A DNA stretch of 4,155 bases from a virus (Duplodnaviria > Heunggongvirae > Uroviricota > Caudoviricetes): the IMG/VR virus record IMGVR_UViG_2565956624_000015; one strand, 5' to 3'. Each line of letters begins with the position of its first letter. Position 1 is the first letter of the stretch. The translations under genes and the position numbers were made by a program. This document shows, in pieces, positions 1-4,155 of the stretch. A model generated the notes under the pieces. It was not told the origin of the DNA. It worked only from the letters and a program-made list of their open reading frames with translations, and ran no database searches.

Positions 1-31
<31 letters not shown>

Positions 32-51
32 GTTTACGCCGCATCCGGCAA
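32..51 (-). repeat. REP-like (repetitive extragenic palindromic) remnant downstream of ybhC
   Basis: Minus-strand reading TTGCCGGATGCGGCGTAAAC matches the conserved half of E. coli REP units. Only one half-palindrome is present, so this is a partial copy. Confidence 0.4.
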
Positions 52-65
52 ATAGTTAATAGCTC

Positions 66-1349
66 TTACTTCTTCGCCTCTGCAACCACTTTGCTACCCA
101 CGCCGCGGTTATTGTATTCCCACATGCGGTTGTAGTTAGTGTCATTCAGATTGCGTTGTATTTCGTCGTTATCATCAACGCTGCCGGTGTTACCCGCAAA
201 CGGACGATTAGAGATCACCGCATCAGCCCAGGGTTTGGCTGTGTTAAAACCTTCGTTGATGGCGCTATCACGGATCACCACCTGACCGTTGGTATTGGCA
301 TCAACATCCAGCGAGCGACCCAGTTGCGCCACGCCATCACCGGAAGCATTGAAACGGCTGTTTACGGCGAGGAAACCGTAATAGATGTTAGACAGCGTAG
401 CCGGTGCAAACACATACGCTTCTTGCTGAGTACGTGAGTTCACCACGCGGAATTCGGTGTTATCGAACACCACTGCGCCGCGACCAGAAACGATATCCAC
501 ATCCCCTTCAATGTAACTGTTGGTCACCAGAGTACGCGGCTGACGGTTGGTTTCCAGACGGTTTTGCACACCACTGTTGGTGACAAAGAAGGTATTCTGA
601 CGACCGAGAATGTTGACGTTATTGATCTGCACTTTGTCACCATCAGTACGCAGTGCCACCGCCGGATGGTTACCCGCATCTACGCTATCGCCCAGCGTGT
701 TTTCGATGGTCAGATTTTGCAGTTGCAGGCCATTGTTTTGTGACCAGAAGACCGCAGAGCAGAGAACACCGATACTGTCGCTGCGTTTGCTCTGGCAGCT
801 ATCGTACATATACCACGCTGGTTTACCTGGCATATATTTGCCGCGCGGGTTGACGTCGTGACGCCAGTCGGCAGGGCTCATGCCCCCATCAAGGGAAAGC
901 CCAATCTTCACATCAATCGGTTTTTCACCTGTACCGTACAGAGTAATTCCACCCGGAGCGGCAGGGACATACACCGTTCCCTGATACTCACCAGGCATCA
1001 CGGCAATATACTGGCGCTTGTTGGTGCGCTTGATAATTGCCGCATCTACCGCCGCCTGAATCGTGGTATGCGTTACACCTTGAGTACCCGCCGGGCCGAC
1101 AACAAAGTCAGGTTGCGCAGGCAGGGTAATCGGGGAAGGATTCCACGCTGCCGCACCTGGTGTCAGGGATGCAAAATAGTGTTGAGCATCGAAATTCTGC
1201 GCTTCTTTTGCCGACAGAATCGGGCGAGAAGAGGTACCAGGCGCGGTTTGATCAGAAGGACGTTGATCGGGCGGTGTTGAGCTACAGGCGGTCAGCGTCA
1301 CGCCAAAAGCCAATGCCAGCGCCAGACGGGAAACTGAAAATGTGTTCAC
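66..1349 (-). CDS. ybhC: Outer-membrane lipoprotein YbhC (pectin-methylesterase-like esterase family), the host gene flanking att-lambda on the gal side
   Basis: 427-aa ORF from the track. N-terminus MNTFSVSRLALALAFGVTLTAC is a lipoprotein signal peptide with lipobox L-T-A-C. GTG start at 1347-1349 with GGAG 5 nt upstream on the minus strand. Length, sequence and position next to attB match what I recall for E. coli YbhC. Confidence 0.85.
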   Translation of the reverse strand: MNTFSVSRLALALAFGVTLTACSSTPPDQRPSDQTAPGTSSRPILSAKEAQNFDAQHYFASLTPGAAAWNPSPITLPAQPDFVVGPAGTQGVTHTTIQAAVDAAIIKRTNKRQYIAVMPGEYQGTVYVPAAPGGITLYGTGEKPIDVKIGLSLDGGMSPADWRHDVNPRGKYMPGKPAWYMYDSCQSKRSDSIGVLCSAVFWSQNNGLQLQNLTIENTLGDSVDAGNHPAVALRTDGDKVQINNVNILGRQNTFFVTNSGVQNRLETNRQPRTLVTNSYIEGDVDIVSGRGAVVFDNTEFRVVNSRTQQEAYVFAPATLSNIYYGFLAVNSRFNASGDGVAQLGRSLDVDANTNGQVVIRDSAINEGFNTAKPWADAVISNRPFAGNTGSVDDNDEIQRNLNDTNYNRMWEYNNRGVGSKVVAEAKK

Positions 1350-1380
1350 AGGTTGCTCCGGGCTATGAAATAGAAAAATG

Positions 1381-1487
1381 AATCCGTTGAAGCCTGCTTT
1401 TTTATACTAAGTTGGCATTATAAAAAAGCATTGCTTATCAATTTGTTGCAACGAACAGGTCACTATCAGTCAAAATAAAATCATTAT
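1381..1487. other. attL: Lambda attL (B-O-P'): host arm, 15-bp core 1396-1410, phage P' arm
   Basis: CCGTTGAAGCCTGC (host B arm as in E. coli attB), then core GCTTTTTTATACTAA, then GTTGGCATTATAAAAAAGCATTGCTTATCAATTTGTTGCAACGAACAGGTCACTATCAGTCAAAATAAAATCATTAT, which is the P' arm of lambda attP. The sequence right of the core is phage (GTTGGCATT...), not the host continuation CTTGAGCG. Confidence 0.92.
1435..1487. promoter_or_regulatory. P' arm protein-binding sites: IHF H' site (about 1435-1448) and Int arm-type sites P'1-P'3 (about 1457-1487)
   Basis: TATCAATTTGTTG fits the IHF consensus WATCAAnnnnTTR. AGGTCACTAT, CAGTCAAAAT and AAATCATTAT fit the Int arm-type consensus (C/A)AGTCACTAT. Site boundaries are approximate. 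Confidence 0.65.
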
Positions 1488-2554
1488 TTGATTTCAATTT
1501 TGTCCCACTCCCTGCCTCTGTCATCACGATACTGTGATGCCATGGTGTCCGACTTATGCCCGAGAAGATGTTGAGCAAACTTATCGCTTATCTGCTTCTC
1601 ATAGAGTCTTGCAGACAAACTGCGCAACTCGTGAAAGGTAGGCGGATCCCCTTCGAAGGAAAGACCTGATGCTTTTCGTGCGCGCATAAAATACCTTGAT
1701 ACTGTGCCGGATGAAAGCGGTTCACGACGAGTAGATGCAATTATGGTTTCTCCGCCAAGAATCTCTTTGCATTTATCAAGTGTTTCCTTCATTGATATCC
1801 CGAGAGCATCAACATGCAATGTTGTTGGGATGGCAATTTTTACGCCTGTTTTGCTTTGCTCGACATAAAGATATCCATCTACGATATCAGACCACTTCAT
1901 TTCGCATAAATCACCAACTCGCTGCCCGGTAACAACAGCCAGTTCCATTGCAAGTCTGAGCCAACATGGTGATGATTCTGCTGCTTGATAAATTTTCAGG
2001 TATTCGTCAGCCGTAAGTCTTGATCTCCTTACCTCTGATTTTGCTGCGCGAGTGGCAGCGACAGGGTTTGTTGTTATATGGCCTTCAGCTATTGCCTCTC
2101 GGAATGCATCGCTCAGTGTTGATCTGATTAACTTGGCTGACGCAGCCTTGCCCTCGTCTATGTATCCATTGAGCATTGCCGCAATTTCTTTTGTGGTGAT
2201 GTCTTCAAGTGGAGCATCAGGCAGACCCCTCCTTATTGCTTTAATTTTGCTCATGTAATTTATGAGTGTCTTCTGCTTGATTCCTCTGCTGGCGAGGATT
2301 TTTTCGTAGCGATCAAGCCATGAATGTAACGTAACAGAATTATCACTGTTGATTCTCGCTGTCAGAGGCTTGTGTTTGTGTCCTGAAAATAACTCAATGT
2401 TGGCCTGTATAGCTTCAGTGATTGCTATCCTCCTGTCTCTGCCTAATCCGAACTCTTTACCCGTCCTTGGGTCCCTGTAGCAGTAATATCCATTGTTTCT
2501 TAAATAAAGGTTAGGGGGTAAATCCCGGCGCTCATGACTTCGCCTTCTTCCCAT
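1484..2554 (-). CDS. int: Lambda integrase (tyrosine site-specific recombinase)
   Basis: 356-aa ORF MGRRRSHERRDLPPNLY...HLLGHKSDTMASQYRDDRGREWDKIEIK, recognised as lambda Int (tyrosine-recombinase H-x-x-R...Y catalytic region near the C-terminus). Stop codon lies inside the P' arm, as in lambda. Confidence 0.97.
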   Translation of the reverse strand: MGRRRSHERRDLPPNLYLRNNGYYCYRDPRTGKEFGLGRDRRIAITEAIQANIELFSGHKHKPLTARINSDNSVTLHSWLDRYEKILASRGIKQKTLINYMSKIKAIRRGLPDAPLEDITTKEIAAMLNGYIDEGKAASAKLIRSTLSDAFREAIAEGHITTNPVAATRAAKSEVRRSRLTADEYLKIYQAAESSPCWLRLAMELAVVTGQRVGDLCEMKWSDIVDGYLYVEQSKTGVKIAIPTTLHVDALGISMKETLDKCKEILGGETIIASTRREPLSSGTVSRYFMRARKASGLSFEGDPPTFHELRSLSARLYEKQISDKFAQHLLGHKSDTMASQYRDDRGREWDKIEIK

Positions 2555-2750
2555 TTCTGATCCTCTTCAAAAGGCTACCTGTTACTGGTCGATTTAAGTC
2601 AACCTTTACCGCTGATTCGTGGAACAGATACTCTCTTCCATCCTTAACCGGAGGAGGGAATATCCTGCATTCGCGCACCCATCGACGAACTGTTTCAAGG
2701 CTTCTTGGGCGTCGCTGGCGAGCGTTCCACTCCTGAAGAGTCAAGTACAT
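2532..2750 (-). CDS. xis: Lambda excisionase
   Basis: 72-aa ORF MYLTLQEWNARQRRPRSLETVRRWVRECRIFPPPVKDGREYLFHESAVKVDLNRPVTGSLLKRIRNGKKAKS, recognised as lambda Xis. The 3' end overlaps the int start by 23 nt (2532-2554), as in lambda. Confidence 0.95.
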   Translation of the reverse strand: MYLTLQEWNARQRRPRSLETVRRWVRECRIFPPPVKDGREYLFHESAVKVDLNRPVTGSLLKRIRNGKKAKS

Positions 2751-2776
2751 CGCAAAGTCTCCGCAATTACACGCAA
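2730..2776 (-). promoter_or_regulatory. pI promoter region with cII-binding direct repeats TTGC-N6-TTGC (2763-2776) just upstream of the xis ATG
   Basis: Minus strand reads TTGCGTGTAATTGCGGAGACTTTGCGATGTACTTGAC. TTGCgtgtaaTTGC is the cII recognition motif flanking the -35 of pI. The -10 and transcript start then fall inside xis, so the pI transcript encodes Int without Xis (established lambda biology). I did not assign exact -10 coordinates. Confidence 0.7.
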
Positions 2777-2777
2777 G

Positions 2778-2800
2778 AAAAAACCGCCATCAGGCGGTTT
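2778..2800 (-). terminator. Putative intrinsic terminator between the 55-aa ORF and the pI/xis region
   Basis: Minus strand AAACCGCC-TGAT-GGCGGTTT is an 8-bp stem with a 4-nt loop, followed by TTTCTT. The TGA stop of the 55-aa ORF sits in the loop. Confidence 0.5.
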
Positions 2801-2957
2801 GGTGTTCTTTCAGTTCTTCAATTCGAATATTGGTTACGTCTGCATGTGCTATCTGCGCCCATATCATCCAGTGGTTATAGCAGTCGTTGATGTCCTCGGC
2901 TTCGATAACTCTGTTGAATGGTTCTCCATTCCATTCACCTGTGACTCGGAAGTGCAT
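2790..2957 (-). CDS. Small hypothetical protein, 55 aa (matches my recollection of lambda 'ORF-55' between xis and ea8.5)
   Basis: Hand translation of the minus strand: ATG at 2955-2957, TGA at 2790-2792, giving MHFRVTGEWNGEPFNRVIEAEDINDCYNHWMIWAQIAHADVTNIRIEELKEHQTA. GGAG lies 7 nt upstream of the ATG. Not in the supplied ORF track, probably because it is below the length cutoff. Confidence 0.6.
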   Translation of the reverse strand: MHFRVTGEWNGEPFNRVIEAEDINDCYNHWMIWAQIAHADVTNIRIEELKEHQTA

Positions 2958-3014
2958 TTATCATCTCCATAAAACAAAACCCGCCGTAGCGAGTTCAGAT
3001 AAAAGAAATCCGCA

Positions 3015-3467
3015 TTAAGCGGCGTCGGTGAATTCAAATAAAAAACCGGCTTGCGCCGGCTCTCTCATCTTTCTGTCTACCCATGCTGATATCGATGGCG
3101 GATGCACCTTTTCAATAGCAGCGCGAAGTACAGCTGTACGTGCCAGTTTGTCGGTAATCTCAGGAAATCGCTTCTCTGTCTTCGGTACGTTAACAGCAAC
3201 ATTAGTAGAATCCGCACTGGCGAACGGATACATACCAAGAACTCTCACGTCGAGCATTCGAAGACCATGAATTTTCACTTTCAAATTACGATTGATATAA
3301 ATCTCAGTAAAAACTTCATCCATTCTCTGTTCCCACCATTTAGAGCGTATGTGCCTGTGTGGGCCGCAGCATCCAATCGCCACCCATTCAAATTTTCCAG
3401 AAAGGCGTAAAAGACGTTCAATTGATTCGTCGTATGCCAGACCGGAACCGCTTTTGATTTTAGCCAA
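3015..3467 (-). CDS. Hypothetical protein (ORF B), no family recognised; possibly the out-of-frame C-terminal part of a frameshifted gene, or a shorter gene starting at the internal ATG 3321-3323
   Basis: 150-aa track ORF that begins at a TTG directly after an in-frame TGA. The first ATG in frame is at 3321-3323 (102 aa) with GGTGGG 8 nt upstream. It overlaps ORF A by 187 nt in the -1 frame. Confidence 0.4.
   Translation of the reverse strand: MAKIKSGSGLAYDESIERLLRLSGKFEWVAIGCCGPHRHIRSKWWEQRMDEVFTEIYINRNLKVKIHGLRMLDVRVLGMYPFASADSTNVAVNVPKTEKRFPEITDKLARTAVLRAAIEKVHPPSISAWVDRKMREPAQAGFLFEFTDAA
3036..3059 (-). terminator. Putative intrinsic terminator hairpin embedded in the 3' end of ORF 3015-3467
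   Basis: Minus strand CCGGC-GCAA-GCCGG (5-bp GC stem, 4-nt loop) followed by TTTTTTATTT. It lies within the last ~15 codons (…REPAQAGFLFEFTDAA) of the 150-aa ORF. Confidence 0.45.
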
Positions 3468-3814
3468 TCAGGAACCAACTCAATCTGCTCGTCGTTTTCT
3501 GCCTCTGTCCCTTCGATAACGTCAGGTATAAGAAACCATTCAATTCTGCTGAACCACTTCCCAACAAAGTCGTAGAATTTTGCTCGTCTCTTACTCCAGT
3601 CTACCGGAGTGCCTTTCTTTAATGCTTTCATCCAGTCGCTAAAAGCGCCGTTATCAAGGCGTATATCACAAGGGAACATGGCAATCTTTTTCATCTGCTC
3701 TGGTCTGGCAAATGAAACAAAAGCCCCACTATCACGGTAAAGGGCTTTAATAAGCATATCTGTAGGGGCATGCTCATCACCCCATATTGGGCTGCCGTGA
3801 AAGTGGATGGTCAT
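3281..3814 (-). CDS. Hypothetical protein (ORF A), 177 aa, no family recognised; accessory (moron-like) gene
   Basis: ATG at 3812-3814 with GGGGA 5 nt upstream. N-terminus MTIHFHGSPIWGDEHAPTD; no signal peptide or obvious transmembrane segment. The last ~60 codons overlap ORF B in another frame. Confidence 0.55.
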   Translation of the reverse strand: MTIHFHGSPIWGDEHAPTDMLIKALYRDSGAFVSFARPEQMKKIAMFPCDIRLDNGAFSDWMKALKKGTPVDWSKRRAKFYDFVGKWFSRIEWFLIPDVIEGTEAENDEQIELVPDWLKSKAVPVWHTTNQLNVFYAFLENLNGWRLDAAAHTGTYALNGGNREWMKFLLRFISIVI

Positions 3815-3872
3815 ATTATCCCCATATAAAAGAAATACCCGCGAGTGCGAGGATTGTTATGTAATATTTGGT

Positions 3873-3997
3873 TTAATCATCTATATGTTTTGTACAGAGA
3901 GGGCAAGTATCGTTTCCACCGTACTCGTGATAATAATTTTGCACGGTATCAGTCATTTCTCGCACATTGCAGAATGGGGATTTGTCTTCATTAGACT
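3873..3997 (-). pseudogene. ea8.5: 3' remnant of lambda ea8.5, truncated by IS1 insertion
   Basis: Minus-strand frame ending at TAA 3873-3875 encodes ...SNEDKSPFCNVREMTDTVQNYYHEYGGNDTCPLCTKHIDD, which matches the C-terminal ~40 residues of lambda Ea8.5 as I recall it. The match stops exactly where IS1-like sequence begins (3998). No start codon is in frame, and the frame hits TGA at 4086-4088 inside IS1. Confidence 0.65.
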
Positions 3998-4155
3998 GGT
4001 AATGGTGCCAACTTACTGATTTAGTGTATGATGGTGTTTTTGAGGTGCTCCCGTGGCTTCCATCTCCATCAGTTGTCCCTCCTGCTCAGCTACTGAAGGC
4101 GTGGTGCGTAACGGTAAAAGTACTGCCGGACATCAGCGCTATCTCTGCTCTCACT
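3998..4155 (+). mobile_element. IS1 insertion sequence, left end (left inverted repeat about 3998-4020); element continues beyond the window
   Basis: GGTAATGGTGCCAACTTACTGATTTAGTGTATGATGGTGTTTTTGAGGTGCTCC... closely matches the IS1 left terminal repeat and leader as I recall them (IS1A: GGTGATGCTGCCAACTTACTGATTTAGTGTATGATGGTGTTTTTGAGGTGCTCCAGTGGCTTC...). Several substitutions indicate a divergent IS1 isoform. Confidence 0.85.
4053..4155 (+). CDS. insA: IS1 InsA (transposition regulator / N-terminal part of the InsAB' transposase), 5' partial
   Basis: GTG at 4053, then [33 protein letters not shown], which matches the InsA N-terminus ([37 protein letters not shown] as I recall it), including the CxxC zinc-finger motif. 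Confidence 0.8.

Follow-up and report, generated by a model that had tools for sequence, protein, structure and literature searches.

A simple IS1 insertion in ea8.5 of a lambda-type prophage, with little predicted effect on excision

The window, by which we mean the whole 4155-nucleotide stretch of DNA analysed here, carries part of a lambda/HK106-type prophage of E. coli that sits at the lambda attachment site beside ybhC, and it stops inside an IS1 element which, judged from its junctions, is a simple insertion in ea8.5 and not the end of a deletion. An earlier note on this DNA had placed IS1 upstream of xis and int in the leftward pL operon and within ea8.5, both of which hold, and had suggested that the element might reduce Xis synthesis and excision by polarity. 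The explanation that we favour as a whole, with a probability of about 0.65, combines the simple insertion with N-dependent read-through of IS1 and near-normal excision; we infer the last two from the arrangement of the operon and from known lambda systems.

From left to right the window runs ybhC – attL – int – xis – ORF55 – a frameshifted HK106-type gene – the 3' part of ea8.5 – the IS1 end (Table 1). Its left edge is marked by the end of an IS1397 element, and it has the appearance of a complete contig from short reads that broke off at IS repeats; this would explain why its other end falls inside IS1. A public 244-kb scaffold, L012, holds the entire window at 4155/4155 identity, both IS-bounded ends included. 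As pL lies outside the window, the structure on the pL side was read from L012. This is a metagenome scaffold, for which assembly over a 768-bp repeat can err, and the source genome of the window need not be the L012 genome; both IS1 junctions and the perfect target duplication were, however, seen independently.

The recombination genes are intact and of lambda type. In Int, the catalytic residues R212, K235, H308, R311, H333 and Y342 are all at their lambda positions and the arm-binding N-terminal domain is present. The 3' end of xis overlaps the 5' end of int, the hybrid 15-bp attL core is followed by a P' arm, and the cII box of the predicted cII-activated pI promoter, which the earlier note had called intact, is identical to that of lambda, as is the sequence around it. 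From its position, pI would give a transcript without a complete xis. Together these features identify a lambda-type attL–int–xis module. The HK106 gp29 homologue further upstream is split by a 1-nt deletion near 3433, and the same split ORFs are annotated in the IS-free siblings; the intact HK106 protein matches PHROG 887 (E 9e-102).

Table 1. Coordinates of features in the 4155-nt window
Feature	Position	Strand	Basis
IS3-family element (IS1397), last 31 nt, in REP sequence downstream of ybhC	1..31		Identical to L011, annotated IS1397 ending there; empty site in L001
ybhC, chromosomal gene flanking the lambda attachment site	66..1349	-	Annotation of 100%-identical genomes; Pfam Pectinesterase
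attL core GCTTTTTTATACTAA; bacterial arm left (ybhC side), lambda-identical P' arm right to ~1483	1396..1410		Comparison with lambda attP; phage matches start at 1396
int, lambda-type tyrosine integrase, 356 aa, intact	1484..2554	-	4 substitutions versus lambda Int; Pfam Phage_integrase and Arm-DNA-bind_1
xis, excisionase, 72 aa, intact	2532..2750	-	1 substitution (G59S) versus lambda Xis; Pfam Exc, E 4e-41
cII recognition box TTGC-N6-TTGC of predicted pI promoter	2763..2776	-	Reverse complement TTGCGTGTAATTGC, identical to lambda
Hairpin plus U-tract just upstream of xis; positional homologue of phage 434 t'-I	2781..2800	-	Terminator scan, about -14 kcal/mol; kept in lambda with one base change
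ORF55, lambdap35 homologue	2790..2957	-	PHROG 676, E 5e-39; lambda annotation
Terminator-like hairpin upstream of ORF55	2977..2996	-	Terminator scan, about -11 kcal/mol
HK106 gp29 homologue, frameshifted (PHROG 'queuine tRNA-ribosyltransferase'); ORFs 3281-3814 and 3015-3467	3015..3814	-	Alignment with HK106
Strongest leftward terminator-like hairpin, 3' end of HK106-type gene	3040..3065	-	About -17 kcal/mol, U6 tail
Weak hairpin just downstream of ea8.5; homologue of lambda/434 t-L4 region	3838..3851	-	About -6 kcal/mol; 434 annotation
ea8.5 3' remnant, residues 54-93 plus stop; no in-frame start before GTG 3965	3873..3997	-	Translation versus intact 93-aa Ea8.5 of sibling L001; Pfam Lambda_ea8_5 for the intact protein
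9-bp target duplication, left copy CATTAGACT	3989..3997		Same 9 bp after IRR in L012-L016
IS1 left end: IRL 3998-4020, insA promoter-like site 4005-4032, insA start GTG 4053	3998..4155	+	158/158 identity to complete IS1 copies; promoter scan

The IS1 portion of the window amounts to 158 nt (insA codons 1–34) and is identical at every position to the IRL/insA end of the full-length (768-bp) IS1 copies in L006 and L007; identical IS1 copies are annotated by RefSeq as 'IS1 family transposase, programmed frameshift'. The L012 copy, also identical over these 158 nt, is a complete 768-bp IS1 with the insA and insB frames open, and it displays the size (~768 bp) and the insA-then-insB (-1 frame) order of the family. 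The terminal inverted repeats of the IS1 family (~23 bp, GGTRATG…CCAACTTAYTGAT) are present, the IRL in the window and the IRR (…ATCAGTAAGTTGGAGTCATTACC) in L006, L007 and L012. The 9 bp that precede the IRL stand on both sides of the element in L012, forming a perfect duplication, and follow the IRR in L013–L016; the L006 and L007 copies are likewise flanked by 9-bp duplications. The right-hand junction of L012 was found on four further contigs, one of which was seen in 16 samples. In this orientation insA runs opposite to leftward pL transcription and points away from xis. No intrinsic terminator was found in IS1 on either strand, so any polarity of the element would need Rho, and the IS1 end facing xis has no outward promoter-like site, even under relaxed criteria.

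Similarity to lambda and to the IS-free sibling prophages ends at 3997, inside codon K53 of ea8.5, and both parts of the gene are found in L012. The truncated Ea8.5 retains 56 of 93 residues fused to three IS-derived codons, its frame terminating 4 nt into the IRR, and has lost the cysteine-containing C-terminal part. A simple insertion that duplicates 9 bp predicts a particular 56-aa product, and exactly this product exists; the products expected from other duplication lengths were not found. What IS1 certainly does is destroy Ea8.5: the N-terminal fragment that is left has 56 aa, and the C-terminal remnant is untranslated. Plaque formation does not require ea8.5, and knocking the gene down leaves plaques unaffected (PMC10695390). 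IS elements have hit ea8.5 repeatedly and independently (IS1 once, IS2-like elements in three or more cases), as would be expected of a dispensable gene.

Beyond IS1, L012 continues into a pL arm with ea22 … RecT … ral, sieB, N, a nutL-like leader, cI, cro and cII. This arm is colinear with that of an IS-free sibling and 99.97% identical to it over 10,166 bp (three mismatches), with nothing deleted. IS1 thus sits in the leftward operon with a pL-like promoter ~6 kb before it and xis ~1.25 kb beyond it in the direction of transcription. The N protein, encoded outside the window in L001, L003 and L012, has 90 aa, an arginine-rich motif (NARNRRRARRQAQ) and a Pfam N_peptide match; upstream of its gene is a site that resembles nutL in sequence, with a boxA-like GCTCTTTAACA followed by a boxB-like hairpin CCCGCCGAAATGCGGG. 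The terminator scan gave seven or eight leftward hairpin-plus-U-tract sites from N to xis, at least three of them between N and IS1 and four or five between IS1 and xis; two are homologous to annotated phage 434 terminators. No other promoter-like site was found on the leftward strand between IS1 and xis. Distal expression in this pL operon would require antitermination past these predicted internal terminators.

What IS1 adds to the transcript is length without translation: the untranslated stretch is ~946 nt, compared with a 58-nt intercistronic gap in the IS-free sibling, and it holds several 78-nt windows with C/G ≥ 1.5, a measure that is heuristic only. Long untranslated RNA with C in excess of G is, on composition, the substrate needed for Rho-dependent polarity.

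In the account that we propose, a complete IS1 has transposed, with the usual 9-bp duplication, into codon 53 of ea8.5 with its transposase genes against the pL transcript. It adds some 0.95 kb of untranslated RNA to the operon and spares attL, both recombination genes (int and xis) and the pI site that depends on cII. After induction, N acting at nutL would modify the polymerase leaving pL. Because several intrinsic terminators precede and follow IS1, this polymerase would have to be N-modified, and the terminator-like hairpins on both sides imply that any transcript reaching xis would be antiterminated with or without IS1. Such Rho-resistant polymerase should cross the element and still make Xis and Int, and excision would be expected to be normal or only slightly reduced when the host Nus factors are normal; a polar effect would show only under limiting N or Nus function. 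In a normal host we predict that Xis would fall little or not at all. In lambda r14 and r32, N-modified polymerase is known to get past the Rho-dependent termination that IS elements induce (PMC4807359). The earlier note had added as a caveat that N antitermination suppresses IS polarity, and we take this suppression to dominate.

Polarity of IS1 occurs in either orientation, and the strong form of the earlier note's suggestion, in which Rho loads on the untranslated antisense-IS1 RNA, ends a large share of pL transcripts despite N and leaves Xis limiting and excision poor, has the correct geometry of IS1, pL and xis in its favour, together with the 946-nt untranslated gap and its C>G windows and the lack of an alternative xis promoter downstream of IS1. 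Termination is indeed enhanced by insertion elements in lambda operons that need N, yet lambda r14 and r32, which carry such elements, still plate on a wild-type host and show a stronger defect on nus mutants (PMC4807359). Only N-modified polymerase would be expected to get past the hairpin terminators upstream of IS1 in any case, and those between IS1 and xis have to be passed even in IS-free phages. The allele moreover persists in many samples with the prophage arm otherwise undecayed, and is found in linkage with a second immunity region as well. We therefore regard strong polarity as unlikely: the geometry described in the earlier note stands, but nothing in the sequence supports reduced Xis and poor excision, and the terminators on both sides, the N gene with its nutL-like leader and the r14/r32 precedent suggest that any effect is small. 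Some points nevertheless weigh against N-dependent read-through with near-normal excision. Xis is unstable and needed in excess, and a modest drop could matter. N antitermination is less than 100% efficient, and each extra Rho-dependent site costs some read-through; r14 and r32 measurably 'enhance termination' (PMC4807359), the several C>G windows in an untranslated stretch so much longer than the sibling's could load Rho, and the N and nut of this prophage differ from those of lambda. A more speculative idea, which we hold to be very unlikely, gives IS1 the role of a cryptic excision attenuator: under limiting N or Nus activity, for example in weak or spontaneous induction, Rho would terminate within IS1, Xis would drop below its threshold and the prophage would replicate or express genes in place and not excise, the repeated IS hits in ea8.5 then reflecting selection for damped excision and not mere dispensability.

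Any phenotype might instead come from the loss of Ea8.5, with induction efficiency slightly shifted and Xis normal. Ea8.5 is a small zinc-finger/homeodomain-like protein of the exo–xis region, a region reported to modulate lysogenization and induction, and the C-terminal part lost here contains cysteines. Those effects were mostly reported for the whole region when over-expressed in multicopy, however, and both the knock-down result and the recurrence of IS hits fit a dispensable gene; this account seems to us improbable. Least credible of all is that, in the source genome, IS1 marks the end of an IS1-mediated deletion or rearrangement that has cut xis and int off from pL and locked the prophage in. 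The far side of IS1 is not in the record, and such an event has a parallel in E. coli XJ5.2 and VE-T9, where another IS1 of the same orientation lies ~100 nt from ea8.5 and directly adjoins ybcN/ninE, the whole region from ea22 to P being deleted. Against this, L012 contains the whole window without a mismatch, down to the IS1397-bounded left end, together with the 9-bp duplication and an intact arm; the matching right junction recurs on the four other contigs; and a short-read contig break at IS repeats accounts for the window end.

The insertion is ordinary and of a long-known kind, and probably has little importance. Accessory genes of prophages often carry IS insertions, and it has been known since the 1970s that IS elements are polar and that lambda N suppresses this polarity. 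The IS1 allele does mark a recognisable E. coli/prophage lineage, and ea8.5 appears to be a recurrent IS landing site. Complete-genome IS-free siblings, identical over the shared sequence, provide a clean natural control for how an IS in the pL operon affects excision; were excision strongly reduced, this would be a natural case of IS-mediated 'grounding' of an otherwise intact prophage.

Several known systems resemble this one in part. The r14 insertion of lambda is reportedly an IS1. In lambda r14 and r32, as here, an IS lies within a lambda operon that needs N, and the added termination is largely overridden by N, the defect being evident in nus mutants (PMC4807359). Those insertions are laboratory-selected and sit ahead of the replication genes in the pR operon, whereas the present one is in the pL operon upstream of xis and int, in natural isolates and with other N/nut specificity. 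Adhya, Gottesman and de Crombrugghe reportedly showed in 1974 that pL transcription under N modification, from a lambda prophage at the same locus, crosses polar insertions in gal. The locus and direction are the same, with the pL transcript running past xis, int and attL towards gal, but there the IS was in the host gal operon downstream of int and here it is inside the prophage upstream of xis. IS2 insertions near xis and int are said to have given int-constitutive lambda mutants (Pilacinski et al., 1977). In both cases an IS near the recombination genes alters, or may alter, their expression; the IS2 reportedly supplies an outward int promoter, in contrast to the IS1 end facing xis.

Two further prophages come closer in layout. 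That of E. coli XJ5.2/VE-T9, at ybhC/attL, shares the same-orientation IS1 adjoining ea8.5 and has intact int and xis; there, ea8.5 itself is intact, the IS1 isoform is only ~91% identical, and ea22 to the replication genes, pL and cI included, are deleted, while nothing is deleted here. In the lambdoid prophage of L017/L018, ea8.5 has also received a simple IS insertion of separate origin, with the recombination-gene arm on one side and a xis-like gene on the other. This prophage differs in its IS3-family (IS2-like) element, which by its ends is probably IS2, in the position of the insertion (codon 43 instead of 53) and in its integrase type and attachment site. Both ea8.5 halves are kept there, with a 5-bp direct repeat at the flanks, and the insertion is present in many contigs.

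The window carries the left end of a lambda-type prophage with the classical attachment site, and its recombination module agrees with the lambda int/xis/attL system in all sequence-level features (see the table). The cII box had been described in the earlier note as intact, and it is; an Rfam scan of the window returned no family. The homologue of HK106 gp29 belongs to PHROG 887 ('queuine tRNA-ribosyltransferase', DpdA-like; no Pfam hit) and is divided into two ORFs by the deletion, which lies near 3433. The frameshift is also annotated in the IS-free sibling genomes, so that this pseudogene is older than the IS1 insertion. The IS1397 copy at the left edge is inserted in a REP sequence between ybhJ and ybhC; this insertion occurs in MS14387 and a few other genomes and is absent from the hosts of the IS-free sibling prophages. 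As IS repeats lie at both edges (IS1397 on the left and IS1 on the right), the window is probably an entire short-read contig, which suggests that breakage at these repeats accounts for its end-points.

Features of the window, with strand where assigned
Feature	Position	Strand	Remarks
IS3-family element (IS1397), final 31 nt	1-31		
ybhC	66-1349	-	
attL core GCTTTTTTATACTAA	1396-1410		P' arm identical to lambda
int	1484-2554	-	Differs from lambda Int at 4 positions; all six catalytic residues kept
xis	2532-2750	-	Differs from lambda at 1 position
cII box	2763-2776		Box and surroundings identical to lambda
ORF55	2790-2957	-	
HK106-type gene	3015-3814	-	Split by a 1-nt deletion
ea8.5, 3' part	3873-3997	-	
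IS1, IRL/insA end	3998-4155		

Homology to lambda and to the IS-free sibling prophages runs out at 3997, and the adjoining IS1 segment is identical at 158 of 158 positions to full-length (768-bp) copies of IS1 from elsewhere in E. coli. IS1 thus does interrupt ea8.5, as had been proposed; in translation the break falls inside codon K53 of the 93 codons. The insA gene starts at 4053 and reads rightward, so a leftward pL transcript would cross IS1 antisense to the transposase genes. The uninterrupted form, with an intact ea8.5, no IS1 and 100% identity to window positions 32-3997, is present in 10 or 11 complete E. coli genomes, and the IS1/ea8.5 junction is absent from all 5,426 complete E. coli genomes. 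FDAARGOS_1288 is an example of an IS-free sibling lysogen. Scans for exact matches to the left junction, and to the right junction as predicted, gave 0 hits in genome_contigs, metagenome_contigs and viral_contigs. A 70-aa plus-strand ORF spanning the junction (3807-4019) had no recorded match, and the sole return for the 30-aa ea8.5 remnant was an unrelated 249-bp lambda-type contig.

The window stops within IS1, so pL is not visible there, and the far side of the element was reached by deriving the protein expected from the other junction and matching it exactly. For a simple insertion with a 9-bp duplication, the predicted product of the 5' part of ea8.5 is 56 aa long and ends …KVYKSNG, at a stop codon within the opening bases of IRR; duplications of other lengths would yield different proteins. 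A search of the protein collection recovered the 56-aa product but none of the alternatives. One of the contigs that encode it is L012, a 244-kb scaffold in a metagenome assembly from ENA, which holds the entire window without a mismatch, the IS1397-derived left end included. Its IS1 is the full 768 bp with the insA and insB frames open and is flanked on both sides by CATTAGACT, with the remainder of ea8.5 beyond; every testable IS1-defining feature (inverted repeats, length, insA/insB and 9-bp duplication) is present. The arm past ea8.5 (ea22, DUF genes, RecT, ral, sieB, N, the leader, cI, cro, cII and replication genes) is colinear with the IS-free sibling over 10,166 bp at 99.97% identity, which bears out the placing of IS1 upstream of xis and int in the leftward pL operon. 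The same right junction was found on four further contigs, each ending inside IS1, one of which is recorded in 16 samples. Samples with the allele include SRR8541364 and 15 others that share its contig, ERZ28588544, ERZ894258 and ERZ27274229, and the strain behind GCA_043057505.1 is an isolate that carries it. Among the four contigs, L014 (1-4620) shares with L012 the junction and 4.5 kb of adjoining arm at 99.8% identity. There the arm is linked to another N gene (of 102 aa) and another repressor region, and ral was not called; the IS1-bearing arm has thus gone through at least one recombination event, which placed it in a second immunity background.

As the window ends in IS1, the element might just as well have marked a deletion end-point. 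E. coli XJ5.2 (L002, 23300-24350) and VE-T9, in which the whole immunity and pL region has been lost near ea8.5, have another IS1 isoform, oriented as here, ∼100 nt beyond an intact ea8.5; it abuts ybcN/ninE, the genes from ea22 to the replication genes are deleted together with pL and the repressor, and int and xis are stranded. For the present allele such an IS1-mediated deletion is rejected in view of the full IS1, the duplication and the colinear arm of L012. With the whole window matched without mismatch, the repeat on both sides and the arm intact, it is very improbable that the genome from which the window comes is built differently from L012.

The insertion certainly destroys ea8.5. 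In addition, the 58 nt that separate ea8.5 from the next ORF give way to ∼946 nt that cannot be translated, because stop codons are abundant in all three antisense frames of IS1 and the ea8.5 remnant lacks a start ahead of 3965. An intrinsic terminator was found on neither strand of IS1, so any polarity would have to be Rho-dependent. An outward promoter from the IS1 end toward xis, on the model of the int-constitutive IS2 insertions, was sought, was not found even under relaxed criteria and is rejected, and no other leftward promoter-like site was found between IS1 and xis.

Whether Xis would be starved depends on the state of the polymerase. Three terminator-like hairpins lie on the leftward strand between N and IS1, and a further four or five between IS1 and xis; two of this second group are homologous to phage 434 sites that bear the names t-L4 and t'-I in the 434 record. 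A polymerase arriving at IS1 would therefore already be termination-resistant, and such resistance would be needed to reach xis even without IS1. Judged from its sequence, the prophage has the parts needed for antitermination: an N protein of 90 aa with an arginine-rich motif, unlike lambda N, and an N-gene leader (29804-30175 in the IS-free sibling L001; 3953-4321 in L012) in which a boxB-like hairpin CCCGCCGAAATGCGGG comes after a boxA-like GCTCTTTAACA. The latter resembles the boxA of the P22/phage 21 type. Although int and xis are lambda-like, the nut specificity thus probably differs from that of lambda.

Together, the hairpins on either side of IS1 and the N and nut-like parts lead us to expect a small polar effect: a pL polymerase made termination-resistant before IS1 would cross the element and reach xis. 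We put at about 65% the reading in which Xis and excision are normal or slightly lowered in a normal host, with an effect only if N or Nus function is limiting. The untranslated RNA, with its windows richer in C than in G, is a plausible Rho substrate and would suit a strong polar effect, but we consider this unlikely given the hairpin context and the fact that lambda r14 and r32, which carry insertion elements, plate on wild-type hosts (PMC4807359). It is likewise doubtful that any phenotype would come from the loss of Ea8.5 itself, the gene being destroyed but dispensable for plaque formation (PMC10695390). The premises of the polarity proposed in the earlier note are sound; a polar effect could occur but would be expected to be weak, and the sequence offers nothing in its favour.

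IS elements have hit ea8.5 repeatedly (proteins P0008, P0011 and P0014). In a different lambdoid prophage (L017/L018, 5001-6620) an IS3-family element lies at codon 43, flanked by the 5-bp direct repeat GTCGG, and this insertion is present in 15 contigs; at codons 25 and 33, other truncated Ea8.5 products run into similar IS ends. The ends at all three codons look like those of IS2. In a Logan contig from SRR1577774 (L020, 1453-1731) the N-terminal part of Ea8.5 ends within 1 nt of the IS1 insertion position (…GGTTTATAA), followed by unrelated sequence and then glycosyltransferase genes, with no IS; the contig may be chimeric, or the break may reflect a mosaic joint or an old rearrangement.

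Insertion of an IS within a phage operon under N antitermination is a classical arrangement. Adhya and co-workers reportedly found in 1974 that N-modified transcripts from the pL of a prophage at this same locus pass polar insertions in gal; a literature search turned up no explicit statement about N and such insertions in gal. The closest documented cases to IS1 in this operon are r14 and r32, whose elements 'enhance termination' in an N-dependent operon and which are markedly impaired only on nus mutants (PMC4807359). The present case is distinguished by its position in ea8.5, on the upstream side of xis, by its occurrence in nature and by having IS-free siblings that are otherwise identical.
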